NCBI GenBank assembly: GCA_004297735.1 | Contig: SCTI01000001.1 | Coordinates: forward strand, 115,467 to 179,466 | Direction of reading: 5' to 3' | Length of the DNA stretch: 64,000 nt | DNA from: Patescibacteria group bacterium | Lineage (GTDB): Bacteria; Patescibacteriota; Saccharimonadia; UBA4664; SCTI01 | Shown here: positions 7,751-59,099 of the stretch, in pieces | Layout of the letters: every line of letters begins with the position of its first letter | Position numbering within the stretch: the first letter of the stretch is position 1 | Program-made: the position numbers and the translations under genes | The notes under the pieces: generated by a model | The model's database searches: none | Told to the model about the DNA's origin: nothing | Seen by the model: the letters and a program-made list of their open reading frames with translations, nothing else

Positions 7751-7910
7751 CGTGTAGGACTTCTGTACTTGCGAGCTGGTACAAGTGCAAAAGTTCTAGA
7801 AGCATCACACACGTACGCGTCACTGCCGATTTAGAAACACCTCTTGATTATTGCTAGGACGAATGTCCCCCTGGCGCCCCACATTACCAATAATCAAGAA
7901 GGAGGATGTC

Positions 7911-10900
7911 TTGGCACAGGCCACCGAGCGTCGATTCTTTAACAAAAACCGCGAAGTTATCGCACTACCAAATTTAATTCAAAATCAAATTGCCTCGTTT
8001 GAGTGGTTCACCACCGAAGGCCTTAAGGAGCTGTTTGCTTCGGTTAGTCCAATTGAGGACTTTACCGGTAAGAGCCTAGCGCTCTACTTTAAGGACTTTT
8101 ACTTTGAAGAGCCCAAGATCGATGAGGCTACCGCTAAAGGTAAGAACATAACCTACGAAGTGCCGCTTAAGGCAGTGGTTGAGCTGGTTAATAAAGAGAC
8201 CGGCGAGAAGAAGAGCCAGGAAATCTTTTTGGGTGACTACCCCTGGATGACCAGTAAGGGCACCTTCATCATTAATGGTGTTGAGCGAGTAGTGATTAGC
8301 CAGTTGGTTCGTTCACCTGGCGTATTCTTTGCTTCCGACATGGTTGGCGACGAGCACCTATTTGGCGCCAAGGTTATTCCAAGCCGTGGAGCTTGGTTGG
8401 AGTTCGATACCGCTCCAAACGGCGTGATTTCGGTCAAGATTGATCGTAAGCGCAAGCTGCCGGTTACCACTCTGTTGCGCGCCTTTGGATTTGCCGATGA
8501 TTCCGAAATTAAAAGTCTGTTTAAAGACGTTGATACCGGTGAGGTTAAGTACATCAATGAGACCCTCGATAAGGACGCTACCAGCAACATGAGCGAGGCC
8601 TTGATGGAGGTTTATCGCCGGATTCGTCCGGGTGATTTGGCTACCGTTGATAACTCAAAGCAGTTGATTGAAGGCATGTTCTTTGACCCTAAGCGTTACG
8701 ACTTTTCGAAGGTCGGTCGCTACAAGATTAACCGCCGATTTGGTACCAAGGTGCCAAACACGGTTGAAAACCGCATCTTCCGCCGTGAGGATTTGGTAGA
8801 CATCTTGCGCGAGATCATCCGTCTTAACAACGACCCTCAGGCTAAGCCAGAGGATATTGATGATCTGTCAAACCGTCGCTTGCGAATGGTTGGTGAGCTG
8901 ATTCAGGATCGTTTCCGAATTGGTCTTTTGCGCATGGAGCGCAACGTTAAGGATAAGATGAGCTTGTACGACCGCGAGACAGTTACCCCAGGTCAGCTGG
9001 TTAACGTTCGACCGGTAGTGGCTAGCGTTAAGGAGTTCTTTGCTAGCTCGCAGTTGAGCCAGTTTATGAACCAAACCAACCCACTAGCCGAGATTGCGCA
9101 CAAGCGACGCTTAACCGCGACCGGCGCCGGTGGTTTAAGCCGCGAACGAGCCGGTTTTGAGGTGCGCGATGTACACCGTAGTCACTATGGTCGTATCTGC
9201 CCAATTGAAACTCCCGAAGGTCCAAACGTTGGTTTGGTGTCCAACCTGGCTACTTATACTCAAGTTAATGAGTACGGCTTTTTGGAAACTCCTTATCGCA
9301 AGGTACTAAATGAGGTTCCGGCGGCTGAGGCGGCGGGGCATATTGCTCGAACCAACATCAAAGACTCTAGTGGCAGTGTGATCGTAAAGACGGGTGAGGT
9401 TATCACCGCAGCAGCAGCTAAAAAGCTAGCTAAGCTAGACAGCGAAATGGTGCCGGTTAAGGCTAAGGTTACCAGCGACGTGGTCTACTTGGATTCTGCC
9501 GACGAAGCCCAGGCTGCTATCACCGAAGCTTCAACCCCACTAAACGATGACAACTACTTTGCTGAAAGTCGCGTACCGGTTCGTCGTGGTGGCGAGACGG
9601 TTGAGGCCGACTCAAACTTGGTCAACTACATGGATGTATCAAGTAAGCAAATCATCTCGGTTTCAACCGCTTTGATTCCATTTATTGAAAACGATGACCC
9701 GAAGCGAGCGCTGATGGGCGCGAACATGCAGAAGCAGGCCGTTTCGCTAGTTAAGCCAGAGGCGCCAGTGGTTGGTACCGGTATGGAGGCGATTGTGGCT
9801 CGCGATTCAGGTCAGGTGATTGTGGCCGAAGAGGATGGCGAGGTGATTACCGCTACCGCCAGCAAGATCGTGGTTAAGTACAAGAAAAAGGGCGAGCAAA
9901 CCTACGAGCTGATTAAGTTTTCGCGCAGCAACGAAGGCACCAGTGTTAACCAAAAGGTAGTGGTAACCAGCGGTCAGAAGCTCAAGCAGGGTGACGTGTT
10001 GGCCGATGGTATGTCGACCGATAATGGTGAGCTGGCGCTGGGCCAGAACGTGCTGGTGGCATTCATGTCATGGGGTGGTTACAACTTTGAGGACGCCATC
10101 ATTATCAGCCAGCGGTTGGTACAGGATGATCGTTACAGCTCAATTCACATTGAGACCTACGAGGTCGACGTGCGTGACACCAAGCTGGGGCCGGAGATTG
10201 TTACTCGAGACATTCCAAACGTTAGCGAAGACAGCCTTAAAGACTTGGACGAAAACGGTGTGGTCCGCATTGGTGCGGAGGTTAGCGCCGGAGACATTCT
10301 AGTCGGCAAGATTACTCCTAAGGGTGAGCAAGAGCTGTCGAGCGAAGAGCGTTTGCTGCGAGCCATCTTTGGCGAAAAGGCCCGCGACGTTAAAGATACC
10401 AGCCTGCGGATGCCAAACGGCGAACGTGGTAAGGTGGTTGGCGTTAAGGTCTTTAGCCGCGAAAACGGTGACGAGCTACAGGCCGGAGTAATCGAGCAGT
10501 ATCACGTATCGGTAGCTCAGCTACGTAAAATGAGCGCCGGCGACAAGATGGCCGGACGCCACGGTAACAAGGGTGTGGTTGCTAAGGTTGTGCCAATCGA
10601 GGATATGCCATATCTCGATGATGGTACTCCAGTCGACATGATTTTGAACCCGCTTGGCGTAAGTTCACGTATGAACATCGGACAGGTGTTTGAGACTCAC
10701 CTGGGTCTTGCCGCTCGAGCGCTGGGTTACAACGTGGCTACACCAGCCTTTGACGGTGTTAACGTCGAAAAGATTAAAGAAGAGCTCAAGCGAGCCGGCC
10801 TCCCCGATGATGGTAAGTCGCAGCTGTTTGACGGTAAGACCGGCGAGCCGTTCCAGGAGCGAACTACGGTTGGTTACAAGTACATGCTTAAGCTCGACCA

Positions 10901-11441
10901 CATGGTTGACGACAAGCTGCATGCTCGCTCAACCGGCCCATACGCTATGGTGACTCAGCAGCCACTTGGCGGTAAGGCACAACGTGGTGGTCAGCGCTTT
11001 GGTGAGATGGAGGTGTGGGCACTCGAAGCTTACGGTGCCGCTAACACCCTGCAGGAAATCCTGACTATTAAATCAGACGACGTGGTTGGTCGCTCAAAGG
11101 CCTACGAGGCCATCATTAAGGGCGAAGAGATCCGCGGACCACGTATCCCCGAGTCATTCAACGTGTTGGTTAAGGAGTTGCAGAGCTTAGGTATGGCAAT
11201 CGACTTAATCCGCGAAGATGGCGGCGAGGAAAAAGAGCTGGATGCCGAAGAGGTACTAAGCGACCAAATTACGGCTGAAGCCAATGAACTAGGAAACGAT
11301 AAGTTAATGAAGGGTGATGAGGTAGCTGATATGCCGCTGGTTGATTTAGCTGGTGGGCAAGAAGATCCATTAGAGGTTGAGGCAGAGGTCGCTGCCGAAG
11401 CCGCTACTACAGACGCCGTAACTACGGAGCAAGAGGCCTAA
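7911..11441 (+). CDS. rpoB: DNA-directed RNA polymerase beta subunit
   Basis: Highly conserved RpoB motifs throughout. Start assigned to TTG 7911 (AAGGAGG at 7897-7903, 7-nt spacer) rather than the track ATG at 7851. Confidence 0.95.
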   Translation: MAQATERRFFNKNREVIALPNLIQNQIASFEWFTTEGLKELFASVSPIEDFTGKSLALYFKDFYFEEPKIDEATAKGKNITYEVPLKAVVELVNKETGEKKSQEIFLGDYPWMTSKGTFIINGVERVVISQLVRSPGVFFASDMVGDEHLFGAKVIPSRGAWLEFDTAPNGVISVKIDRKRKLPVTTLLRAFGFADDSEIKSLFKDVDTGEVKYINETLDKDATSNMSEALMEVYRRIRPGDLATVDNSKQLIEGMFFDPKRYDFSKVGRYKINRRFGTKVPNTVENRIFRREDLVDILREIIRLNNDPQAKPEDIDDLSNRRLRMVGELIQDRFRIGLLRMERNVKDKMSLYDRETVTPGQLVNVRPVVASVKEFFASSQLSQFMNQTNPLAEIAHKRRLTATGAGGLSRERAGFEVRDVHRSHYGRICPIETPEGPNVGLVSNLATYTQVNEYGFLETPYRKVLNEVPAAEAAGHIARTNIKDSSGSVIVKTGEVITAAAAKKLAKLDSEMVPVKAKVTSDVVYLDSADEAQAAITEASTPLNDDNYFAESRVPVRRGGETVEADSNLVNYMDVSSKQIISVSTALIPFIENDDPKRALMGANMQKQAVSLVKPEAPVVGTGMEAIVARDSGQVIVAEEDGEVITATASKIVVKYKKKGEQTYELIKFSRSNEGTSVNQKVVVTSGQKLKQGDVLADGMSTDNGELALGQNVLVAFMSWGGYNFEDAIIISQRLVQDDRYSSIHIETYEVDVRDTKLGPEIVTRDIPNVSEDSLKDLDENGVVRIGAEVSAGDILVGKITPKGEQELSSEERLLRAIFGEKARDVKDTSLRMPNGERGKVVGVKVFSRENGDELQAGVIEQYHVSVAQLRKMSAGDKMAGRHGNKGVVAKVVPIEDMPYLDDGTPVDMILNPLGVSSRMNIGQVFETHLGLAARALGYNVATPAFDGVNVEKIKEELKRAGLPDDGKSQLFDGKTGEPFQERTTVGYKYMLKLDHMVDDKLHARSTGPYAMVTQQPLGGKAQRGGQRFGEMEVWALEAYGAANTLQEILTIKSDDVVGRSKAYEAIIKGEEIRGPRIPESFNVLVKELQSLGMAIDLIREDGGEEKELDAEEVLSDQITAEANELGNDKLMKGDEVADMPLVDLAGGQEDPLEVEAEVAAEAATTDAVTTEQEA

Positions 11442-11442
11442 G

Positions 11443-15339
<3,897 letters not shown>

Positions 15340-15387
15340 CGGATGAGCCAATTTCTGTTTAACTATCTAGGTCTATAAGGAACACAC

Positions 15388-15801
15388 ATGCCAACAATTA
15401 ATCAATTAATTCGTAAGCCACGCCAGTCTAAGGGACAGAAGTCAAACACTCCTGCCCTAGGCCGGACGTTGAACGCGCTTAAGGGTAAGACCTATGCCAA
15501 GGGTGCGCCCTTAAAGCGCGGTGTGTGTACCAAGGTGTCTACCACCACCCCAAAGAAGCCAAACTCGGCTTTGCGTAAGATTGCACGTGTACGCCTCTCT
15601 AACGGAATGGAAGTCACCGCTTACATTCCGGGTGAGGGCCACAACCTGCAGGAGCACAGCGTGGTACTGATCCGCGGTGGTCGTGTAAAGGACCTTCCGG
15701 GTGTGCGTTACCACATCGTGCGCGGTGCGCTTGATACCGCTGGTGTCAGCAACCGCAAGCAGGGTCGTAGCAAGTATGGCGCTAAAAAAGATAAGAGCTA
15801 A
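15388..15801 (+). CDS. rpsL: 30S ribosomal protein S12
   Basis: [10 protein letters not shown]... canonical S12. Confidence 0.97.
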
Positions 15802-15863
15802 CAATTTAATCACACCCGCCGTCTAATACGGAGCTCGGGTAGTAACTCATAAAGGAGTGAAGC

Positions 15864-16340
15864 ATGCCACGAAAAAAGACCAAGTCATTTAAACGCCAAA
15901 TCAACCCGGATCTTCAGTATCAGAGCGTATTGGTATCCAAGATGATCAACAAGATCATGCGCCATGGTAAAAAGCGTCTGGCTGAAAGCCTAATGTATGG
16001 CGCAATGAGCGAGATCAAAGAAAAGCTGAAGCAGGATCCGCTAGAAGTGTTTGAGACCGCGATTAAGAACGTCTCACCTCAGCTACAGGTACGAGCTAAG
16101 CGAATCGGCGGCGCCACCTACCAGGTACCAATGGAGGTCAAGGGCGATCGTAAGACTCACTTGGCCATGACTTGGATTCTTGATTCGGTGCGCAACAAGT
16201 CGGGTAAGCCGTTCGATAAGCTACTAGCCCAGGAGCTAATGGACGCTTACAATAACACCGGTGACGCAATTAAGAAAAAAGAAGACACCCACCGCATGGC
16301 CGAGGCCAACAAAGCCTTTGCTCACTTTGCGCGGTATTAA
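15864..16340 (+). CDS. rpsG: 30S ribosomal protein S7
   Basis: 158 aa with the S7 signature. Confidence 0.97.
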   Translation: MPRKKTKSFKRQINPDLQYQSVLVSKMINKIMRHGKKRLAESLMYGAMSEIKEKLKQDPLEVFETAIKNVSPQLQVRAKRIGGATYQVPMEVKGDRKTHLAMTWILDSVRNKSGKPFDKLLAQELMDAYNNTGDAIKKKEDTHRMAEANKAFAHFARY

Positions 16341-16360
16341 ATTAGAGGGAATGCACGATA

Positions 16361-18442
16361 ATGGCACGCGAATATAGTTTAGATAAAACTCGTAACATTG
16401 GCATCATTGCCCACATTGACGCTGGTAAAACCACCACTACCGAAGGTATTTTGTACCGTACCGGTAAGACTCACAAGATTGGTGAGGTTCATGAAGGCGA
16501 AGCCACCATGGACTGGATGGAGCAAGAGCAAGAGCGCGGTATTACCATTACCTCGGCTGCGACCACCTGTTTCTGGAACGATACTCGTATCAACATCATT
16601 GATACGCCGGGCCACATCGACTTTACCGTAGAGGTTGAGCGGTCTTTGCGCGTGCTCGACGGCGCGGTGACGGTGTTTGACGGCAAGATGGGTGTGGAGC
16701 CACAGTCGGAGACGGTTTGGCGTCAGGCCGACAAGTACGGCGTGCCTCGCATTTGTTTTATTAACAAGATTAACCAGACCGGCGGAGACTTTTACAAGAG
16801 TCTCGAGTCGATTCATGAGCGTTTGAGCAAGCGCGTCTACGCCATTCACCTGCCAATTGGTTTTGAGCAGAGCATCAACGGAATCGTTGATTTGGTTGAA
16901 ATGAAGGCCTTTACCTACGGCGACTACACCGACAAGGAGCTGAAAGAGGTTGAGATCCCAGCCGACATGAAGGAAAAGGTTGAACGCTACCGCAACCATT
17001 TGATTGAGGCGGCGGTTGAGGCCGATGACGACATGATGGAGAAGTATCTGGAAGGTAACGAGCTAACCGTTGAGGAGCTCAAGGGCTTGATCCGTAAGAG
17101 CGTGCTTTCGGGTGAGTTCTACGCCGTTAGTGGTGGCGATGGTCGCGGCGTGATTGTTGAAAAACTGCTTGATGCGGTGGTTGACTACCTACCAAGCCCG
17201 CTCGACGTTCCTCCAGTTACCGGTACCGATCCAAAGACCGGCGAGACCTTGCTGCGTAAAAGTAGCGACGAGGAGCCATTTTCGGCCCTCGCCTTTAAGA
17301 TTGCCGCCGACCCATTTGTTGGTAAGCTCGCCTTCTTCCGCGTTTACTCAGGTACGCTTAAGTCCGGTTCATACATTCTTAACTCAAGCACCGGCCAAAA
17401 GGAGCGCATCGGTCGAATCCTACGTATGCATGCCAACAGCCGCGAAGAAGTGCAAGAAGTGTACGCCGGTGAGATTGCCGCTGCCGTGGGTCTTAAGGGC
17501 ACCATGACCGGCCACACCATGAGCGATCAAGCTAACCCAATTATTCTTGAAAGCATCGAGTTCCCGGATCCAGTTATCCAGATCGCGATTGAGCCAAAGA
17601 CCAAGGCCGACCAAGAAAAGATGAGTTTAGCTCTCCAGCGCTTGGCCGAAGAGGATCCAACCTTCCGGGTTTCGACCAACCATGAGACCGGTCAGACCTT
17701 GATTGCCGGTATGGGTGAGCTTCACCTGGACATTTTGGTAGACCGCATGAAGCGTGAATTTAAGGTTGAGGCTAACATCGGTACACCACAGGTAGCGTAC
17801 CGTGAGACTATCCGCAAGCCGAATCAGGTTCAGGGCAAGTTTGTCCGTCAGTCGGGTGGACGCGGTCAGTATGGTGACGTCTGGCTAGAACTAACCCCAC
17901 AGGAGCCTGGTGCCGGCTTTGAGTTTGAAAACGCCATCGTTGGTGGTGTGATCCCACGCGAGTACATCAAGCCGGTCGAAGAGGGCGTTAAAGAGGCCAT
18001 GCAAAACGGCGTGTTGGCTGGCTACCCGGTAGTCGACATCAAGGCCAAGTTATACGACGGCTCGTACCACGATGTTGACTCCAGTGAAATGGCCTTTAAG
18101 ATTGCCGGTTCAATGGCGCTGCAAGAGGGTGTACGCAAGGGCGATCCAGTTATGTTGGAGCCGGTAATGAAGGTCGAGGTAACCGTACCAGAAGAGTTTA
18201 TGGGCGACGTAATTGGTGACATCAACTCCAAGCGTGGTCGTATCCAAGAAATGACCGATCGTGGTCAGGCCAAGGTGGTTCAGGCCTTTGTGCCACTGGC
18301 TGAGATGTTTGGTTATACCACTACCTTACGTTCGATGACCCAGGGCCGTGCCTCAAACTCAATGGAGTTTGATCACTACGCCGAGGTCCCACCTAACGTA
18401 GCCGAGGATATTATCGGCAAGCACGCCGCTTCTAAAGCCTAA
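16361..18442 (+). CDS. fusA: Elongation factor G
   Basis: G-domain [17 protein letters not shown]; 693 aa. Confidence 0.97.
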
Positions 18443-18637
18443 GCGGCGGCTTCCGATTTACCTCTTTACAGAGGCGGAAATTCCTCCTATACTATGAGGG
18501 TCCGTTTTGGGCAGTTACTCTATTGCCTAAAATATTTAACAACTAATAAATGTTTCATTGCAGATCGCTGACTCTAGTCGCGACACCCTCGATTGGCAGG
18601 GTTAACAATCTGAAATGAAACAATAAAAGGAGAACCA

Positions 18638-19813
18638 ATGGCAGAATTTCAGCGAACCAAGCCCCACGTCAACGTTGGTACTATGGGTCACGTCGATCAC
18701 GGTAAAACTACCCTGACCGCTGCGATCACCACCGTATTGGCTAAGCGCTTGCCAGATGATATTAACAAGCCGGTTAATTACGACCAGATTGATAACGCTC
18801 CCGAAGAGAAGCAGCGCGGTATTACCATCGCCACCTCTCACCAGGAGTACAACAGCGAAAAGCGACACTACGCTCACGTTGATATGCCAGGTCACGCCGA
18901 CTACGTAAAGAACATGATTACCGGCGCTGCCCAGATTGATGGTGCTATCCTGGTAGTTAGTGCGGCTGACGGCCCAATGCCTCAGACCCGCGAGCACATC
19001 TTGCTGGCAAAGCAGGTTGGTGTTCCTTACATCCTCGTGTTCATGAACAAGATGGATATGGCCGATCCAGAGCTAGCCGAGCTAGTTGAGATGGAAATCC
19101 GCGAACTGTTGGCAGCTCAGGGCTTTGACGAGAATGCCCCAGTGATTAAGGGCTCGGCTCTAAAGGCGCTGGAAGGCGACAAAGAGTACGAGGATAAGAT
19201 CATGGAGCTGGTTGAAGCAATGGATGCTTCGATCCCAGAGCCAAAGCGTGAAGTTGATAAGCCGTTCATGATGGCCATTGAGGATGTGTTCTCAATTAAG
19301 GGCCGTGGTACGGTTGCTACCGGTCGCATCGATCAGGGCAAGTTGGCAGTAAACGACGAGGTTGAAATCGTTGGTATTCGCCCAACCAAAAAGACCACCG
19401 TTACCGGCGTAGAGATGTTCAAGAAGTTGCTACCTGATGCTCAGGCTGGTGACAACATTGGCGCCTTGCTCCGCGGTATTGAGCGAACCGATATTGAGCG
19501 CGGTCAGGTATTGGCCAAGCCAGGTTCAATCACTCCCCACACCGAGTTTGATGCTGAGGTTTACGTACTAAAGAAGGAAGAGGGCGGACGCCACACCCCA
19601 TTCTTTAAGGGCTACAAGCCACAGTTTTACATCCGAACCACCGATGTTACCGGCGAGATTCAGTTTGAAGGCGAAATGGTGATGCCGGGCGACAACGTTC
19701 AGATGAAGGTTAAGCTGATCGCTCCGATCGCCATGGAAGATGGCCTCCGCTTCGCTATTCGCGAGGGTGGACGCACCGTTGGAGCCGGAGTCGTAACTAA
19801 GATTACCAAGTAA
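18638..19813 (+). CDS. tuf: Elongation factor Tu
   Basis: [17 protein letters not shown]; 391 aa. Confidence 0.97.
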
Positions 19814-21486: not shown

Positions 21487-21551
21487 TAGTAGTAAATTCC
21501 TAGCATAAGCAGTATTATCAAAAAGTAAAACTATCAAACGGAAGCAGTTAA

Positions 21552-43919: not shown

Positions 43920-43994
43920 GCCGACGTAGCTCAATGGTAGAGCAACAGTTTTGTAAACTGTAGGTTGCGGGTTCAATTCCTGTCGTCGGCTCCA
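43920..43994 (+). tRNA. tRNA-Thr (anticodon TGT)
   Basis: Manually folded cloverleaf: acceptor gccgacg/cgtcggc, D arm gctc...gagc, anticodon stem acagt/actgt with loop tttgtaa, T-loop ttcaatt, encoded CCA. Confidence 0.8.
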
Positions 43995-44004
43995 GAAAAT
44001 CTAT

Positions 44005-44090
44005 GCCGGGTTACCCAAGCGGTCAACGGGGGCAGACTGTAAATCTGCTGGCGTACGCCTTCGGGAGTTCGAATCTCTCACCCGGCACCA
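44005..44090 (+). tRNA. tRNA-Tyr (anticodon GTA), type II with a long variable arm
   Basis: Acceptor gccgggt/acccggc, anticodon loop ctgtaaa, long variable arm, TTCGAAT T-loop, encoded CCA. Confidence 0.85.
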
Positions 44091-44104
44091 AATTGCATCA
44101 TCTC

Positions 44105-44179
<75 letters not shown>

Positions 44180-44223
44180 TGTAATTTTTATGGTATAATT
44201 ATAGTAAATAACCGAGAAAAACA

Positions 44224-44430
44224 GTGGCAACTAAGACTAAAAAGTTAACCTTAAGTAAAGACAAGAAGCTATCCGGCGTTTGCGGCGGGATTGCTGAATA
44301 CTTTGAGTTTGACCCTACCATCGTTCGACTAGGCATGGCATTCTTCATCCTAGTGACCGGTGTGTTCCCGGGGCTGATTTTTTATGTTGTTGCCGCCATT
44401 GTGATGCCGGAAGCAGAAGGAGCCAAGTAA
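44224..44430 (+). CDS. PspC-domain small membrane protein (68 aa)
   Basis: The GVCGGIAEYFEFDPTIVRLGMAFF motif is typical of the PspC domain, followed by one TM helix. Confidence 0.7.
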   Translation: MATKTKKLTLSKDKKLSGVCGGIAEYFEFDPTIVRLGMAFFILVTGVFPGLIFYVVAAIVMPEAEGAK

Positions 44431-44592
44431 ATGGCTAAAAAGAACCGCCCAATCATCACTTTGCGTTCAAACGAGGATCCGGAGACGGTGTACACCACCA
44501 CCAAGAATCCTAAAAACACCCCTGATCGTTTAGTGATGAAAAAGTATTCTAAGCGCCTTAACAAGGTTGTTGAATTTAAAGAGAGCAAGTAG
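44431..44592 (+). CDS. rpmG: 50S ribosomal protein L33 (53 aa; below the ORF-track threshold)
   Basis: Manual translation MAKKNRPIITLRSNEDPETVYTTTKNPKNTPDRLVMKKYSKRLNKVVEFKESK; the ATG directly follows the PspC stop. Confidence 0.85.
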   Translation: MAKKNRPIITLRSNEDPETVYTTTKNPKNTPDRLVMKKYSKRLNKVVEFKESK

Positions 44593-44671
44593 CTCACCTG
44601 CTCATAGCCTTGCGTTGTGAGCGCACTTATCGCATAATCTAGCCATTCTGCACCTTCACTAGGAGTTGATC

Positions 44672-45241
44672 GTGGCTATCTTGCTTGAAAAGCGCAATAA
44701 CCTCGAAGACCCGTGGAAGTTTTTTACGCTGCAAGGCTTTAGCAGGGCAAGCATTGAGCTAAAATCCCCTGGTTTTTCTAGCATGACCTTTGCCGCCCAT
44801 CTGTTTCAGAACAATCCAAAGACAGACGCGGTTGAGGTATATGGCCTCAGAACAAGGACTAAGGTTAGGCTAAAAAGCCTTGCTCCGGGGGAATCTTGGA
44901 ATGGCACAGTTTGGAGCGAAAACACCAGCAGCGGCTACATCTGGGGTCGCATAACCAACTTTGACGTCAGCTGGCTGCCCCATATCTACTGCCCGGCTTG
45001 CAGCCAAGCCTTTACTCCGTTTGAGCTTGAATATCACCTCAACCGGCACACCATATATGAGGCCGTCAGGTACGGAGTTGGCTACGGGGAGATTTGGCGT
45101 GACGTTGTACTAGACATTGAGGAGTACATCAACAGCGGAATTGCTTCTGGTATTGCACAGCTTGGACTGACTCGCCTACTTAGAAGGCTTCTTGAAAGAG
45201 CTGTGACCGCCCAGCTTAGCGAAGCCAGTATGCAGAACTAA
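44672..45241 (+). CDS. Hypothetical protein (189 aa) with a possible CxxC...HxxxH metal-binding motif
   Basis: ORF track 44666..; the GTG at 44672 with an AGGAG 6 nt upstream is the preferred start. Confidence 0.5.
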   Translation: MAILLEKRNNLEDPWKFFTLQGFSRASIELKSPGFSSMTFAAHLFQNNPKTDAVEVYGLRTRTKVRLKSLAPGESWNGTVWSENTSSGYIWGRITNFDVSWLPHIYCPACSQAFTPFELEYHLNRHTIYEAVRYGVGYGEIWRDVVLDIEEYINSGIASGIAQLGLTRLLRRLLERAVTAQLSEASMQN

Positions 45242-45251
45242 AAATGCCAGC

Positions 45252-45290
45252 GGGCTCATGGATATAGGACGCCATGAGCCCAGTTTTACT
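45252..45290 (+). terminator. Rho-independent terminator
   Basis: 10-bp stem gggctcatgg/ccatgagccc followed by agttttact. Confidence 0.6.
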
Positions 45291-45338
45291 CAACAAATAG
45301 GCATTAATAAGATACAATTATGTGGTCCTATCTGATAT

Positions 45339-45414
45339 AGGGGTGTAGCTCAGCTGGTAGAGCATCGGTCTCCAAAACCGAGTGTCGTGGGTTCGAGTCC
45401 TGCCACCCCTGCCA
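45339..45414 (+). tRNA. tRNA-Trp (anticodon CCA)
   Basis: Acceptor aggggtg/cacccct, anticodon loop ctccaaa, T-loop ttcgagt, encoded CCA. Confidence 0.85.
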
Positions 45415-53709: not shown

Positions 53710-54249
53710 ATGACCGAGTCGACCGCAAACAAGCACTGGTACGTGATTCATACCTACTCAGGATATGAAGATCGAGTCGCCGAAAACATCAAGCAGCGTA
53801 TTGTCACCATGAACATGCACGACAAGATTTTTGATGTGATTGTGCCAAAAGAAAATCAGATTGAGATTAAGAACGGTCGTCGTCGCATTGTTGAGCGCCG
53901 CATCTTCCCAGGTTACGTACTGGTGCAGATGGATGTTACCGAAGACTCGTGGTTTGTAGTTCGCAACACCCCAAACGTCACCGGCTTTGTTGGCAGCGGA
54001 GTTACTCCAACCCCAATCGATCCGGATGAGGTGCGCCACATTCAGAAGCGCATGGGTGTTGAGGAGCCTAAGTACAAGATCGACTTCCACATTAATGAGA
54101 CGGTTAATATCGTTGATGGTCCATTTAAGGGCTTTGACGGCTCGGTCAATGAGATCGACGAGAGCAAGGGCAAGATTAAGGTACTAGTAAGTATGTTTGG
54201 CCGCGAGACACCGGTTGAACTCGATAGCTTGCAGGTTAAAAAGATTTAA
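53710..54249 (+). CDS. nusG: Transcription termination/antitermination factor NusG
   Basis: NGN domain plus a KOW motif. Confidence 0.95.
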   Translation: MTESTANKHWYVIHTYSGYEDRVAENIKQRIVTMNMHDKIFDVIVPKENQIEIKNGRRRIVERRIFPGYVLVQMDVTEDSWFVVRNTPNVTGFVGSGVTPTPIDPDEVRHIQKRMGVEEPKYKIDFHINETVNIVDGPFKGFDGSVNEIDESKGKIKVLVSMFGRETPVELDSLQVKKI

Positions 54250-54738: not shown

Positions 54739-54767
54739 GGTGGGAGGCCGAAAGCCGCTTGAACCAC
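54739..54767 (+). promoter_or_regulatory. Second copy of the L1-binding-site-like motif, upstream of rplA (GGTGGGAGGC-n3-AAGCCG-CTTG-AACCAC)
   Basis: Aligned by eye with the motif at 54256..54286. Confidence 0.45.
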
Positions 54768-54775
54768 AGGAGAAT

Positions 54776-55783
54776 ATGATGGCAAAGAAGAAAGAAGAGA
54801 TCCAGAACGAAGAAATCGTTACTGACGAGCAGGTTGAAGCTCAGGCCGAGGCTGTAACTGACGAAGCTCCAGCCGATAACGCTGCCAAAGAAAACACCGA
54901 CGAAACCCCAGATGACACGGTTGATGAGGATAGCAAGCCTCGCACCACCAAGGCTGGTAAGCGCAGCGCTAAGGCTCAGCGAGAGGCCGACGAAGAAGAA
55001 GCCCGCAAAGAGGCCGCCAAAGAGGATAAAGAGGCTCCAGTAAAGCCTAAAATCGTTCACACGCCTAACCCAAAGAACCGTCACGGCAAAAACTACTTGA
55101 GCTCCCGTGAGCTGATTGAAGAGGGTAAGTTTTACGAGCTACCTGAGGCAATTGAGCTGGCAAAGAAGACCAGCAAGGTCAAGTTTGATGCTTCGGTTGA
55201 GCTGCATATGAACCTAGGAGTTGATCCTAAGCAGGCCGACCAGATGGTGCGTTCAACCGTGGTGCTTCCAGCTGGTACCGGTAAGACCATTCGCGTGGCC
55301 GTAATTGCTCCAACCGATAAGCATGCCGATGCCAAGAAGGCAGGTGCCGATATCGTCAGCGACGAAGCCCTGGTTGAGACCATTAGCAAGGGCAAGATTG
55401 AGTTTGATACCCTAATTGCCACCCCAGACATGATGGCCAAGCTCAGCAAGGCTGCTAAGGTGCTTGGGCCGCGTGGCTTAATGCCAAACCCTAAGAGTGG
55501 TACTGTGACTGCCAACGTAGCGCAGGCGGTTGAGCAGGCTAAGGCCGGTAAGGTTGAGTTCCGCATCGACAAGCAGGCCATTGTTCACCTGCCGGTCGGC
55601 AAGGTTAGCTTTGCGGATGACAAGCTGCTCGAAAACCTGACTACCGCTATTCAGGCGATCATGAAGGCCAAGCCGGCCGCCGCTAAGGGTACTTACGTCG
55701 AGGCGATCTCGTTGACCACCTCCATGGGCCCTGGCATCAAGATTGATGTCACCAAGGCAATTGCCGCCAGCAACAAACGCTAA
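54776..55783 (+). CDS. rplA: 50S ribosomal protein L1 with a roughly 100-aa acidic/Lys-rich N-terminal extension
   Basis: Start at the ATG ATG 54776 after an AGGAG RBS. The L1 core runs from about KPKIVHTPNPKNRHGKNYL onward; the preceding 100 aa are low-complexity E/D/K/A-rich. Confidence 0.9.
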   Translation: MMAKKKEEIQNEEIVTDEQVEAQAEAVTDEAPADNAAKENTDETPDDTVDEDSKPRTTKAGKRSAKAQREADEEEARKEAAKEDKEAPVKPKIVHTPNPKNRHGKNYLSSRELIEEGKFYELPEAIELAKKTSKVKFDASVELHMNLGVDPKQADQMVRSTVVLPAGTGKTIRVAVIAPTDKHADAKKAGADIVSDEALVETISKGKIEFDTLIATPDMMAKLSKAAKVLGPRGLMPNPKSGTVTANVAQAVEQAKAGKVEFRIDKQAIVHLPVGKVSFADDKLLENLTTAIQAIMKAKPAAAKGTYVEAISLTTSMGPGIKIDVTKAIAASNKR

Positions 55784-55804
55784 AACTACTTTTTAGATCA
55801 TCAA

Positions 55805-55827
55805 GCCGCCCGGTTGGGCGGTTTTTG
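55805..55827 (+). terminator. Rho-independent terminator after rplA
   Basis: gccgccc-ggtt-gggcggt followed by ttttt. Confidence 0.7.
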
Positions 55828-55899
55828 ATCGGGTAACTGTATTTGACTCGGATCTTTTTGAGTAAAACTATTTAGACTTTTTGACTCAAATTGGCTGTG

Positions 55900-56214
55900 T
55901 AAAACTACGTGTGCGCCCAGAGCGCACCCACACGTCGCAGCTGCTTCAAAGGTAATTAGCCCTGCTTCGTGCAGTCGGGGGCTGTAGTACCGGAATGTTC
56001 CGCCGACGTTCGGTGTAAAACGTCGGCCTGTAGGTTGAAGGTTTAACCCTGCTACCGATCCTTGCCGATGGCGAGGCGTTGTGTGCCAGTAGTGGCCTCA
56101 ACACCCATGTGCTTAGACTCTTGTTCTCTTCTGACGAGCGGTCGCAGCACCCAGTATTCTTACTCCTCCGGTAGCCCCCGGCTGATTACTGGCTTCTACG
56201 ATCTAGGAGCAAAC
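55900..56214 (+). ncRNA. Candidate structured non-coding RNA immediately upstream of the RT gene (retron msr-msd-like or DRT-type ncRNA candidate)
   Basis: GC-rich, about 315 nt, no credible ORF. Perfect hairpins gtgcgc-ccaga-gcgcac (55911-55927) and gccgacg-ttcggtgtaaaa-cgtcggc (about 55996-56026). Long-range inverted repeat cagtcgggggctg (55972-55984) / agcccccggctg (56173-56184), 11/13 complementary. Confidence 0.4.
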
Positions 56215-57258
56215 ATGCCCCTTCACAACACCGGCCAGCTTGAGCTTGAGCTGGAAGCGTTGATGGAGGAGCCGCTGTTTCACTCCTTCATCCATAAAGA
56301 TGTAAATCGACTCTCTGGAAACGTTAAGTTTCGGCGGGTTTCAGCGCCCAATAAAGCGATGCGCAAGATTCACTTGCAGATTCGAGCGGCGTTGAGCCGG
56401 CTTGATGTTGAAATGCCATACGTCACCGCTGGGCTTCGCAAATCCAAAGTGGTCAACCACGTCAAGGCACATCGTGGCAATCAGTACCTGTGTTGCTATG
56501 ATCTGAAGGCCGCGTATGATCACGTCCGGCCAGAAGCGATGGCTGACATCTTGCGCCAACATGGGTTGCCGGAGTCAGACATTGAACTTGTAGCTCGATA
56601 CTGCTTCGGTAATGAAAGCGGTGGATTGGTGACGGGTGGGCTGGTTTCAGTTCAGCTGTTCAACCTGTACGCCAATGAGGTAATCGACCAGCCGCTCGCA
56701 ACGTTGTTTGCCGAGCGAGGCGGCATCACCTATACCCGTTACATTGATGACCTGATTATCTCCTCGGGTGCTCCGATCGGGAGACGGTTCCGTAGGTCGA
56801 TCCTGCAAATCATTCGGGCGGCTGGGTTCGAGATCAAGCCGGCTAAAACACAGCTAATTGATCTGGCGGCCGAGCATAGTCAGATGGCGGTACTCAACGG
56901 GATTGGGCTCGACCTGAACGGCGAGCTGCACGTAAGGCCGCATTATCGCGAACTGCTCTACAGGCTTATCAAGAGAGCTCAGGCAGGAGAGATTGACCCG
57001 AGTGTCGTCCACGGGTGCATGGGGGCGTTTTACGTCATCAAGCCGCGTGGGCAGCAAATGACTCCAGGCGAGCGCAAGCTGGATCGAGCCTATCGCTGGT
57101 ATGTTAATCAGCAGCGGCGAGCAGATCCTGGCCGACCCGAGCGCCGGAGGCGCAAGCAGCAGCAGTATCGCGCCCGGCGACGACTCAAGCCAAGCTATAA
57201 GCGGCATGGTCGCCGTAGCGGACCGGTTGGCACGTACCGACCAAGACCGACTTTTTAA
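56215..57258 (+). CDS. Compact reverse transcriptase (347 aa; RT domains 1-7, YIDD active site, no maturase/endonuclease domain, Arg-rich C-terminal tail)
   Basis: Motifs: KFRRVSAPNKAMRKIH (1), CCYDLKAAYDHV (2), GGLVTGGLVSVQLFNLYANEV (3/4), YTRYIDDLII (5), GFEIKPAKTQLI (6). Start placed at ATG 56215 with an upstream TAGGAGC RBS. The track ORF begins at 56062, but that N-terminal stretch is Cys/Ser-rich low-quality sequence overlapping the structured RNA. Confidence 0.75.
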   Translation: MPLHNTGQLELELEALMEEPLFHSFIHKDVNRLSGNVKFRRVSAPNKAMRKIHLQIRAALSRLDVEMPYVTAGLRKSKVVNHVKAHRGNQYLCCYDLKAAYDHVRPEAMADILRQHGLPESDIELVARYCFGNESGGLVTGGLVSVQLFNLYANEVIDQPLATLFAERGGITYTRYIDDLIISSGAPIGRRFRRSILQIIRAAGFEIKPAKTQLIDLAAEHSQMAVLNGIGLDLNGELHVRPHYRELLYRLIKRAQAGEIDPSVVHGCMGAFYVIKPRGQQMTPGERKLDRAYRWYVNQQRRADPGRPERRRRKQQQYRARRRLKPSYKRHGRRSGPVGTYRPRPTF

Positions 57259-57259
57259 C

Positions 57260-57287
57260 CCCGCGCGTGGTAGCCACTACGCGCGGG
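57260..57287 (+). terminator. Hairpin immediately after the RT stop (cccgcgcgt-loop-acgcgcggg); weak T-tract
   Basis: 9-bp GC-rich stem seen directly. Confidence 0.4.
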
Positions 57288-57421
57288 AGTTTCGTTTAAT
57301 GAATAAATTATGTGTCTGCTACTTGGCTTTAATAACTGGTATTATTCCGCCCTCAAACCTGGTTTAATCAATATTTAATTATGTTTTGGCAGACTGTATT
57401 GTATTAAATAAGGACGCAGAA

Positions 57422-57625
57422 ATGGGGGCAGAAAAAGTATCGTTTGAGGGGGTTCTAGAGCGGTTGCGAGATGTTGAGGTTAAGTTTGAAAACCTTAGGG
57501 CTAACACTGAGGGCATTACAAAAGACATCCTGGCAGATACCAATAATATGCCAACGTACGAAAGAAGACTCAAGAAGCTGGAGTCAGCAGTTGCGGTGCT
57601 GCAGCGGCTTAAACAAAGGAGGTAA
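57422..57625 (+). CDS. Small coiled-coil protein (67 aa), first gene of a translationally coupled pair downstream of the RT
   Basis: ATG 57422 with an AAGGA RBS. Its stop TAA lies inside the AAGGAGG RBS of the next gene. Lower GC than the RT. Confidence 0.45.
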   Translation: MGAEKVSFEGVLERLRDVEVKFENLRANTEGITKDILADTNNMPTYERRLKKLESAVAVLQRLKQRR

Positions 57626-57628
57626 TAT

Positions 57629-57955
57629 ATGAGCCAGAAAGTTTTCACCTACAAAGGGATTACTATTGATATTGATAGCCCGAGAGATAGTTCCATTTTT
57701 CGTTTGATACCAGTAGAAAAAGTTGATAGTGAGTGGCGCAGTCTGCATTGGGGGTACCAGTGGTACCGCAGTCGCTTGGCGATTGCGTTGAGATTGTGGG
57801 GGATGAATGACGAAGCTAAGGAGACTTTCGAGAAGCTTATTGAGATTGAAAATAACGTTAAAGATGGCTATGTCCCTCCATATGACCGTGCAGCTGAAGA
57901 AAGGAAGGAGCACGAAGAGTACATAAAAGCCGTCTTTGGTTCGGTCCAGAGTTGA
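57629..57955 (+). CDS. Small hypothetical protein (108 aa), second gene of the coupled pair
   Basis: AAGGAGG RBS 7 nt upstream. Confidence 0.5.
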   Translation: MSQKVFTYKGITIDIDSPRDSSIFRLIPVEKVDSEWRSLHWGYQWYRSRLAIALRLWGMNDEAKETFEKLIEIENNVKDGYVPPYDRAAEERKEHEEYIKAVFGSVQS

Positions 57956-57980
57956 CAAACATCGGTTCAACAGATACAAT
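57952..57980 (+). promoter_or_regulatory. Consensus sigma70 promoter for rplJL (TTGACA -17- TACAAT)
   Basis: ttgaca at 57952-57957 and tacaat at 57975-57980. Confidence 0.6.
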
Positions 57981-57984
57981 CATT

Positions 57985-58117
57985 GAGATTACTGAAGACC
58001 GGAGCGGCCGCAAAGCTTAATCAGCTCCCGAGGTACATTAGATTTCATGCTGCGTTCATGAATATTTAATGAGACGTCTTCGGCTAATCGCCGAATTTTT
58101 TGTTTTTGGAGACCAAG
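57985..58117 (+). promoter_or_regulatory. L10 (rplJ) leader with an attenuator hairpin (ttcggc-taatc-gccgaa + ttttttgttttt at 58079..58107)
   Basis: Structured 5' UTR of about 130 nt in the position of the L10(L12)4 autoregulatory leader. Confidence 0.5.
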
Positions 58118-58648
58118 ATGGCAATTACTCGACAGCGAAAAGAAGAGACCGTAGCTCAGCTCCAGGATACCCTGGGACAGCTAAAGTTAATGGTAATGAC
58201 CGACTACCGTGGTTTAACGGTGCCGGAAATTACTGAGTTGCGTGGTAAGCTTCGCGATTCGGGTGTGAACTACTCGGTTACCAAAAACACCCTGTTACGG
58301 ATTGCGGCGAAGAACACGCCCAACCTAGCAGACATCGACCCAGCAACCTTTACCGGCCCGATGGCTTTGGCCATTTCGACCGAGGACGAGGTTGAGCCAG
58401 CTCGCGTGGTATTCCAGTACGCCAAAGAGCACAAGGCGCTCGAAATCGTTGGTGCTATCACCGGCGACGGACAGCTACTGAGCCCAGCCGAGGTTAAGGC
58501 GCTGGCAACTCTACCGACTCGCGAGCAGCTTATTGCTCAGGTGGTTGGCACGATTGCCGCACCTTTGAGTGGTTTGGTTGGTGTAATGGGTGCCAATGTT
58601 CGCGGTATTGTTACCGTACTCAACGCAATTAAAGAAGCAAAAGAATAA
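58118..58648 (+). CDS. rplJ: 50S ribosomal protein L10
   Basis: Start at [10 protein letters not shown] (ATG 58118). Confidence 0.93.
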
Positions 58649-58658
58649 GGAGGCCATC

Positions 58659-59099
58659 ATGGCAGAGGAAGTAAAAGAGACCCCAGCAGTAGAAGCTGCA
58701 GAAGAGAAAAAAGAAGTTCCAGCTAAGTTTAAGGACTTGGTTGAGCAGATCGACAAGCTGAGCGTACTTGAGCTGAGCGAGTTGGTTAAGGTACTTGAGG
58801 ATCACTACGGCGTGTCCGCAGCTGCACCAGCAGTTGCTGTAGCCGCAGCTCCAGGTGCAGGTGGCGACGAAGCCGCCGCCGAGGAGAAGAGCGCTTACAC
58901 CGTGGTTCTGGCTGCTGCAGGCGACCAGAAGATTAACGTCATCAAGGCGGTTCGCGAGATTACCGGCCAGGGCCTGGCTGAAAGCAAGGCATTGGTTGAT
59001 GGTGCTCCTAAGCCAATTAAGGAAAACGTTCCTAAGGCTGAGGCCGAAGAAGCTAAGGCTGCCCTTGAGGCCGCTGGTGCAACTGTAGAGCTTCAGTAA
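58659..59099 (+). CDS. rplL: 50S ribosomal protein L7/L12 with an N-terminal extension of about 20 aa
   Basis: ATG 58659 after an AAGGAGG RBS. The C-terminal domain is canonical ([28 protein letters not shown]). Confidence 0.93.

Follow-up and report, generated by a model that had tools for sequence, protein, structure and literature searches.

A conserved structured RNA beside a retron-like reverse transcriptase gene in Patescibacteria

What is the structured stretch of DNA that precedes a reverse transcriptase (RT) gene within a ribosomal-protein operon of a Patescibacteria group bacterium, and what might its RNA do for that enzyme? The locus lies in a stretch of 64,000 nucleotides (assembly GCA_004297735.1, contig SCTI01000001.1, positions 115,467 to 179,466), referred to here as the window and numbered from its first letter, in which the gene order is secE, nusG, rplK, rplA, the RT gene with two small open reading frames (ORFs), an L10 leader, rplJ and rplL. 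The 431-nt gap between rplA (54740-55783) and the RT gene holds the structured region, which a first-pass annotation had flagged as a retron-type template RNA or, equally, as a non-coding RNA (ncRNA) like that of the defence-associated reverse transcriptase (DRT) DRT2. About 80% of the RTs of the candidate phyla radiation (CPR)/Patescibacteria are of the diversity-generating retroelement (DGR) type (reviewed in PMC8632793), and no description of a retron-like RT-ncRNA family in CPR bacteria was found in the literature searched.

Here, we find that the flagged stretch is a real, conserved, folded RNA. An ncRNA of about 300 nt, read from the + strand between ~55905-55911 and ~56192-56214, is very probably the dedicated partner of the downstream RT. 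Our best reading of the region is that it specifies the cognate scaffold or template RNA of an effector-less, retron-like RT family that is found mostly in CPR.

A conserved fold upstream of the reverse transcriptase gene

The fold is organized around a long-range inverted repeat in which CAGUCGGGGGCU (55972-55983) pairs with AGCCCCCGGCUG (56173-56184) over 12 contiguous pairs, 11 of them Watson-Crick and one G-U. The first-pass annotation had located this repeat, and the pairing is better than the 11 of 13 positions that it quoted; it had also correctly put the distal arm about 30 nt before the RT gene (the arm ends at 56184 and the ATG is at 56215, with 30 nt between). The minimum free energy of 55965-56190 (226 nt) is -95.8 kcal/mol, compared with -73.5 +/- 4.5 kcal/mol for dinucleotide shuffles (z = -4.9), none of 200 of which folded as well. 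The minus strand has z = -4.0 and folds 9.6 kcal/mol weaker than the + strand, on which all of the elements described below are placed.

Folding with covariation across homologous loci had been suggested as a check on the structure, with loss of the repeat in relatives as the possible outcome that would speak against it; homologous RT loci keep the upstream structure, and the repeat covaries. The window was aligned with the upstream regions of four close relatives, designated L001, L002, L003 and L004, whose RTs are 84%, 63%, 62-64% and 44% identical to that of the window, respectively. RNAalifold recovers from this alignment the closing stem (P1), a 5-nt bulge, a second stem (P2), hairpin H3, a near-invariant hairpin H4 and hairpin H5, and separate predictions for five homologous loci each contain the closing stem. 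Paired bases occupy 92.5% of alignment cells, compared with 38-54% when the partners are slid by 1-3 columns, and compensatory changes are found in 16 of 51 pairs – among them four in P1, four in P2 and five in H3 – compared with 2-6 in the slid controls; none of 500 shuffles attains the observed values. In helices 1-4, nine cells are G-U pairs that are compatible with an RNA read from the + strand and not from the opposite one.

Two other readings, that the region regulates the ribosomal-protein operon as an rplA/rplJ leader or that its structure is fortuitous and has nothing to do with the RT, are hardly credible. The location between rplA and rplJ in four loci is what an operon leader would have, but the actual L10 leader lies elsewhere, at 57974-58110 (its Rfam score, 43.6 bits, narrowly misses the gathering score of 44). 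Because L002 carries the same RNA and RT adjoining thyA/folA, outside any ribosomal operon, the RNA belongs to the RT and not to the operon; chance structure is excluded by the covariation statistics. Apart from the L10 leader there is no Rfam match in 55000-58700 at E <= 1, none in the whole window reaches gathering thresholds, and no second copy of the RNA core was found within the window.

At its 5′ end the RNA has the hairpin GUGCGC-CCAGA-GCGCAC (55911-55927), whose place in L001, L002 and L004 is taken by a hairpin unlike it in sequence. It had been described as lying between the arms of the repeat; the hairpin is real, but it is located upstream of the proximal arm. Hairpin P0 (55931-55971) has the conserved loop CUUC(A/G)AAGGUAAU and is absent or shortened in L004, and its GGUAAU could alternatively pair with AUUACU at 56185-56190. 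The 5′ strand of P1 (‘a1’, 55972-55983) and its 3′ strand (‘a2’, 56173-56184) make up helix 1, in which 100% of the cells of the 12 pairs are paired. The 5-nt bulge G(U/A)AGU (55984-55988) follows, and its G55984, kept in all five close relatives, is the candidate priming G if the system were to work in a retron-like manner. P2 (helix 2) joins 55989-55994 to 56167-56172, with compensatory changes in four of its six pairs; the 3′ strands of both stems are part of the covarying alignment.

P2 encloses two regions of contrasting character. A hypervariable segment (55995-56052 in the window; 55-105 nt between P2 and H3 among the loci) is unalignable even where the flanking RNA is near-identical, is ~50 nt longer in L002, and is a candidate payload or template. 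Within it are hairpins H1 (56002-56027) and H2 (56030-56052); H1, formed by GCCGACGUU/AACGUCGGC, lies inside the inverted repeat as had been reported, with a 9-bp stem and 8-nt loop rather than 7 bp and 12 nt. The conserved half is the 3′ one. H3 (CCUUGCC-GAU-GGCGAGG, 56060-56076; helix 3) is paired in 100% of cells, and five of its seven pairs show compensatory change, while H4 (GUUGUGUGCCAGUAGUGGCCUCAAC, 56078-56102; helix 4) has eight of nine pairs invariant even where the RT is only 44% identical, and is likely to be an RT recognition element. H5 (56109-56150) has a conserved pyrimidine-rich loop, GUCUUCUUC(U/C)GA, and its helices 5 and 6 are paired in 79-80% of cells, with weaker covariation than the other helices. 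Finally, a helix (PK) can form across the a2 strand between CCAGUA (56151-56156) and UACUGG (56187-56192); it brackets the 3′ strands of P2 and P1 and could be a pseudoknot or an alternative hairpin or conformation.

Two further sequence matches were seen in this conserved half. The octamer CUGACGAG (56127-56134, in H5) matches the hammerhead core CUGAnGA, but it is not conserved in the homologues and has no Rfam match, and a hammerhead was rejected. Positions 56096-56114 are complementary over 18 of 19 nt to the nusG coding region at 54046-54064 (E = 0.07 within the window), which is probably a matter of chance.

The RT frame can be extended upstream to a TTG at 56062, an extension that the first-pass annotation had rightly treated as an artefact: a ribosome-binding site (RBS), AGGAG, is present at 56205-56209 within the translation-initiation region (56193-56214), all homologues align from Met-1 at 56215, and the substitutions upstream are compensatory. 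The same substitutions, together with the lack of a conserved or credible ORF in the region, led us to reject both a protein coded within the RNA and a longer RT N-terminus. Alternatively, the region could have no template role and serve as a structured mRNA leader through which RT translation or stability is controlled, for instance by an RBS-masking switch. Such a leader would be on the same strand as the RT ORF and contiguous with it, as this RNA is; a possible RBS-masking hairpin, GCUUCUA/UAGGAGC (helix 7), is paired in 84% of cells with one compensatory pair; and UACUGG has alternative pairings with CCAGUA or GGUAAU. However, ~300 nt with at least six helices, and with hairpins more conserved than the protein, are far beyond the needs of a leader, and the retron, DRT2, DRT3, DRT9 and DRT10 RTs in the papers cited all use an adjacent ncRNA as template or scaffold. 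Moreover, two tandem ncRNA paralogs, 39-48% identical, precede a single RT in L006 (4304-4970), L013 (2949-3739) and L018 (2429-2944), and have only the P1, central-hairpin and PK blocks in common; the first copy in L006 and L013 is equipped with a terminator of its own, which argues for a stand-alone RNA. We therefore regard a leader function as very improbable.

In the close relatives and beyond, the RNA is always directly upstream of the RT and on the same strand, including in other contexts such as beside thyA/folA (L002) or after tRNA genes (L005 and L014). A contiguous-helix scan returns as the top match in many loci a stem of 10-16 bp, covering ~200-290 nt, with its distal end 5-158 nt short of the RT start; with a fixed 400-nt window per region, a stem scoring >= 30 is present in 19 of 37 upstream regions, compared with none of 37 RT coding regions and one of 68 other flanks. 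The H4 core was found in only four close loci, so the wider family shares a plan rather than a sequence. The bracketing helix recurs similarly: it is CCAGUU/AACUGG in L004, and helices occupy the PK position in L010 (8 bp), L016 (7 bp), L028 (10 bp), L031 (9 bp), L062 (7 bp) and L067 (10 bp), with different sequences in other subfamilies, such as UCAGCAAU/AUUGCUGA and UUCGGCG/CGCCGAA.

The reverse transcriptase and its relation to retrons and DRTs

The RT (56215-57258, + strand; 347 aa) matches Pfam RVT_1 (E = 1.5e-19) and has a YIDD active site and an Arg-rich C-terminal tail, the latter an addition of the window's subfamily; RTs of the family are 300-350 aa long, with no extra domain. An exhaustive profile search yields 384 cluster representatives at E <= 1e-30, compared with only ~20 clusters in a word-indexed search, and scans of genome contigs gave no matches with a single protein and succeeded when based on an alignment. 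Among genome-collection matches at E <= 1e-17, 16 of 17 are labelled CPR, and the closest matches to carry an organism label are Saccharibacteria and other Patescibacteria genomes assembled from metagenomes. The only other label is that of L021 (CAYNGY010000001.1, a 477-kb contig), from a metagenome-assembled genome named ‘uncultured Gammaproteobacteria’, which could reflect mis-binning or horizontal transfer. No relatives of the family were found in 2.9 million viral contigs, and a phage origin was rejected on that ground.

By sequence and predicted fold, the nearest known enzymes are those of retrons. All of the best PADLOC matches are retron RT models, with RT_VI first (86 bits), and the best sequence match in the PDB is the Ec83 retron RT (E = 1.2e-9). 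When an AlphaFold model (mean predicted local distance difference test score, pLDDT, 87) is searched with Foldseek, the top 16 PDB matches are all retron RTs, the structurally nearest being those of Eco7, Ec83, Ec78, Eco2 and Ec86, followed by DRT9 (rank 17), a group II RT (rank 19), DRT2 (rank 23) and DGR RTs (ranks 40-41). Two other identities were rejected outright: a group II intron, with no Rfam intron match and 29.6 bits on the group II RT model TIGR04416 against a cutoff of 300, and a DGR, for which no template/variable repeat (TR/VR) of the region turned up in the 64 kb of the window, where the best match covers 19 nt with E = 0.07.

The likeness to retrons has limits. The NCBIfam model retron_St85_RT gives 77.4 bits against a cutoff of 235, and a genuine type VI retron from Flavobacterium (L035), used for calibration, scores 243 bits on RT_VI and 110-185 bits on other listed types, with upstream genes that score 109 bits on HTH_VI and 98 bits on SP_VI. 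By comparison, the window RT and nine relatives score 70-111 bits, about equally on types II-A, III-A, VI and X. Scores this low and even suggest that the family is retron-like but outside the classified retron radiation, and on the sequence models the window RT falls outside all 13 retron types and under every retron family threshold. The motifs give a similar picture. Retron RTs are distinguished by NAxxH and VTG; the window RT has HVKAH and LNG. Among 164 family sequences, the first motif, as N[V/A]xxH, has N in 114, V/A in 123 and H in all 164, and the equivalent of VTG reads I/V, then N (99) or T (47), then G (164), so that the signature motifs appear recognizable but degenerate.

Could the system nevertheless be a bona fide retron? 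In that case the region would be an msr-msd RNA, the 2′-OH of G55984 would prime synthesis, the RT would start just 5′ of a2, and branched multicopy single-stranded DNA (msDNA) would restrain a toxin encoded elsewhere or by genes of the 57386-57955 type. As in retrons, the ncRNA immediately precedes the RT gene and shares its strand, a long-range repeat has its distal arm near the RT start (a2 lies 30 nt from it), an unpaired G directly follows the proximal arm in all five close relatives, and the RT, with its remnant motifs, is nearest to retron RTs. The two downstream ORFs, of 79 and 108 aa, also resemble the reported sizes of the type VI small protein (SP) and helix-turn-helix (HTH) protein. 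However, they match neither HTH_VI nor SP_VI and are absent from L001; the RT scores fall well short of those of true retrons; no effector is conserved in 43 family loci; and there is no Rfam family match in the region besides the L10 leader. The RNA also departs from retrons in having P2 directly above P1 and a helix bracketing a2, five or six short interior hairpins where retrons have msr hairpins and one long msd stem, and tandem copies at some loci of the family, whose host range among strong genome-collection matches is almost entirely CPR. Retron RNAs are conserved on the 5′ side and variable on the 3′ side. Here it is the part adjoining a2 that is conserved, with the hypervariable half on the 5′ side, a polarity opposite to that of retrons. 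A minus-strand RNA, which would restore retron polarity, is ruled out by the G-U pairs and the weaker folding. Thus, the first-pass proposal of a retron-type template RNA stands as far as an RT-associated ncRNA with an a1/a2-like stem abutting the RT; an msr-msd is not established, given the RT scores, the degenerate motifs, and the lack of an msd stem and an effector, and we consider a bona fide retron unlikely.

Type VI retrons deserve separate mention, since RT_VI gives the window RT a higher score than any other single PADLOC model. They comprise an RT clade with a Cro/C1 HTH protein (cl2_1) and small proteins (PMC7736814; bioRxiv 10.64898/2026.04.27.721009; 10.1101/2025.10.22.683967), and according to the type VI papers these SP-HTH-RT systems with a hybrid RNA (hyRNA), including Retron-Vpa2 and Retron-Sen3, were long thought to be without ncRNA or msDNA. 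The hyRNA is reported to be long, multi-armed and closed by a1/a2-like repeats, like the RNA described here, and the type VI set includes a CPR (Levybacteria) representative. However, the window has neither HTH_VI nor SP_VI nor protein-coding sequence inside the RNA, and the hyRNA lies upstream of the SP and HTH genes whereas the window RNA abuts the RT. With 86 bits on RT_VI compared with 243 in the genuine SP-HTH-RT locus, a type VI identity was rejected.

A second set of relatives to be considered is the DRTs. DRT2 consists of a UG2 RT and a pseudoknotted ncRNA from which concatemeric cDNA and the neo gene are made, the ncRNA being described as having a 5′ handle, a least-conserved template and a pseudoknotted 3′ region (PMC12039810); DRT9 and DRT10 consist of an RT and an ncRNA and make protein-primed homopolymer or tandem-repeat DNA. 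If the system worked like one of these, the 3′ hairpins and pseudoknot would clamp the RT, 55995-56052 or a short motif would be copied unbranched, perhaps repeatedly, and the DNA or its product would be the effector. The architecture is in part consistent with this. Like DRT2, the module is an RT and an ncRNA only, with ~280-300 nt of ncRNA upstream of the RT and a 5′ hairpin, a least-conserved segment and a conserved 3′ scaffold with a candidate pseudoknot. Like DRT9 and DRT10, it has no separate effector and has an adjacent ncRNA, which in those systems is essential, and DRT9 is the first non-retron structural match to the RT. Tandem ncRNA paralogs share scaffold blocks and differ elsewhere, and the P1/P2 stem would hold the enclosed region's two ends close together, a requirement of template jumping.

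The RT, however, belongs to a different clade, and the suggestion that the RNA could equally be DRT2-like fails at the protein level: the RT scores 22.8 bits on Drt2 against a cutoff of 390 and 19.2 bits on DRT3, and the DRT9 and DRT2 structures rank below 16 retron RTs. Moreover, there is no conserved stop-free frame in the P1-enclosed region, the length of which is not a multiple of three, and L016, L028, L067 and L070 have stops in all six frames. A never-ending ORF like neo was thus rejected, the whole P1-enclosed region having been examined and promoter halves not looked for. The domain closed by a 12-bp long-range stem has no counterpart mentioned in the portion of the DRT2 source available, the variable part is not consistently 5′ in other subfamilies, the RNA is without a U-tract or obvious short-repeat template such as DRT9 and DRT10 would lead one to expect, and the RT is ~150 aa shorter than that of DRT9 and closer to retron RTs. 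What survives of the DRT2 comparison is some of the architecture, and not the RT clade, and we regard a DRT2-, DRT9- or DRT10-like system as distinctly unlikely.

Insertion sites, transcription and neighbouring genes

The apparently effector-less character of the family can be seen in its neighbourhoods. When ORFs of at least 55 aa from -3 to +4 kb of 43 loci were clustered, no conserved neighbour of the RT emerged; apart from the RT itself and antisense ORFs lying within it, the only clusters to recur are housekeeping genes in synteny at the four rplA-rplJ loci. At L018 the interval from tRNA-Leu to tRNA-Cys is taken up entirely by the RT and its two ncRNAs, with no other ORF. An MNT/HEPN pair is located near the RT in L013.

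The element also turns over rapidly relative to its surroundings. Identity between the window and L004 is 96-98% for NusG, L11, L10 and L7/12, compared with 44% for the RT, and RTs in the same rplA-rplJ slot range from 84% (L001) through 64% (L003) to 44% (L004) identity with the window. The cargo beside the RT varies likewise, with none in L001, two small ORFs in L003 and a dCTP deaminase in L004. Diverged RTs in the same slot, with variable cargo, form a hotspot pattern that is typical of accessory or defence genes and not of housekeeping ones. The L004 dCTP deaminase (DCD) gene (4114-4872, minus strand) directly adjoins the RT, a position held in the window by the two small ORFs; DCD-family enzymes are known anti-phage effectors. 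Cassettes adjoin tRNA genes in L005 (4472-4558), L014 (4-77) and L018 (2276-2357 and 4007-4079), and the frequency of this arrangement suggests insertion at tRNA-linked hotspots.

Upstream transcription ends at an intrinsic terminator of rplA, AAGCCGCCC-GGUU-GGGCGGUUUUU (55803-55830), which is conserved in L001, L003 and L004; the ncRNA would accordingly need a promoter of its own. A promoter-like region (55843-55907) contains two TTGACT hexamers, each followed by GTAAAACTA. The window has four copies of this nonamer, each in + orientation (55862-55870, 55899-55907, 18702-18710 and 21525-21533; 0.54 expected), and may be a -10-like promoter element in the source organism. Homology to the L002 cassette, which is in a different genomic context, begins at ~55897-55905, and the transcript probably starts near 55905-55911. 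A related nonamer, GUGUAAAAC, is found at 56013-56021 in the H1 hairpin loop inside the ncRNA.

Directly 3′ of the RT stop codon is a terminator-like 12-bp hairpin (57260-57287), and beyond it are the two small genes (57386-57955), encoding 79 aa (57386-57625) and 108 aa (57629-57955). Both are real genes, with 43% and 61% identity, respectively, to their L003 counterparts, and appear to be optional cargo: they are present only in the window and L003, are absent from L001 in spite of its 84% identical RT, and have a GC content of 44.6% compared with 56% for the RT. Their products match no defence, Pfam or PHROG family and no PADLOC model; the 79-aa protein is coiled-coil-like, and the AlphaFold model of the 108-aa protein (pLDDT 57) is too poor for a fold search.

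Several features elsewhere in the window were noted in passing. The rplA product, ribosomal protein L1, has an acidic, lysine-rich N-terminal extension of ~110 aa, which is not seen in typical bacterial L1, and L1 is only 83-90% conserved among relatives compared with 97-98% for L11. ORFs of the size of rpoB/rpoC (1196 and 1298 aa) and of fusA/tuf (693 and 391 aa) are located far upstream and not directly 3′ of rplJL; these identities are guesses from ORF size and order alone (region 7851-19813). A cluster of tRNA genes (Thr, Tyr, Thr, Trp) lies at 43.9-45.4 kb (43920-45414).

A possible mechanism and its significance

The RNA, taken here as the cognate scaffold or template of this RT family, presents, in order, a 5′ hairpin, P0, and a domain closed by P1 that contains the bulge, P2, the hypervariable hairpins and then H3/H4, with the candidate helix PK bracketing the 3′ strand of P1. 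The RT would bind the conserved 3′ hairpins and PK, and the P1/bulge/P2 junction would bring a priming site and the template to the active site, where cDNA would be copied from part of the RNA. With no toxin partner, the module would act through the cDNA, through the RT-RNA particle itself, or through factors encoded elsewhere, and would be a fast-turnover accessory system, most likely anti-phage. As to the chemistry within this scheme, retron-style priming from the 2′-OH of the bulged G, giving branched msDNA, is quite possible though short of probable; a non-branched, DRT-style product is a more tentative prospect; other outcomes make up the remainder. A more specific form of the idea – a mostly CPR, effector-less, retron-derived family with a mechanism undescribed for retron-clade RTs, in which a swappable, hypervariable cassette is set between an ultra-conserved scaffold and a stem-plus-pseudoknot clamp, sometimes with two RNAs per RT, and in which the output is cDNA or the RT-RNA particle – is attractive but on balance doubtful.

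Several observations weigh against this scheme or its parts. The detailed fold comes from five close sequences, with H5 and the RBS hairpin weakly supported, and the case for H4 is one of conservation only because H4 never varies. About half of the family loci are without a clean long-range stem in the simple contiguous-helix scan. Taken locus by locus, PK is mostly a weak helix (shuffle fractions 0.00-0.64), so that the argument for it is the recurrence of its position, and it is perhaps sterically incompatible with fully formed P1 and P2. Against retron-style priming in particular, the G after a1 is not universal and has no fixed position in the wider family, the predicted fold is made up of five or six short hairpins, with none of the long msd type, the conservation polarity is reversed, and a conserved effector is lacking. 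It is the hotspot behaviour alone that suggests a defence role, and against such a role stand the small size of CPR genomes and the location of the element within a core operon. All that is said here of the function of the RNA and the RT, we infer.

If the module is active, it would be either the smallest retron-type system known or a new, toxin-free use of reverse transcription, and either outcome would add to the known RT-ncRNA mechanisms. The RNA offers P1, the bulged G, H4 and PK as elements on which this can be tested, and the family could supply compact RT/template pairs for DNA-writing tools. CPR/Patescibacteria genomes are tiny, and what the family loci examined carry as a conserved partner of the RT is a structured RNA and nothing else; if the effector-less reading is true, the RNA and its RT would be a minimal immune or regulatory module of ~1.4 kb, suited to the ultra-small genomes of these bacteria.

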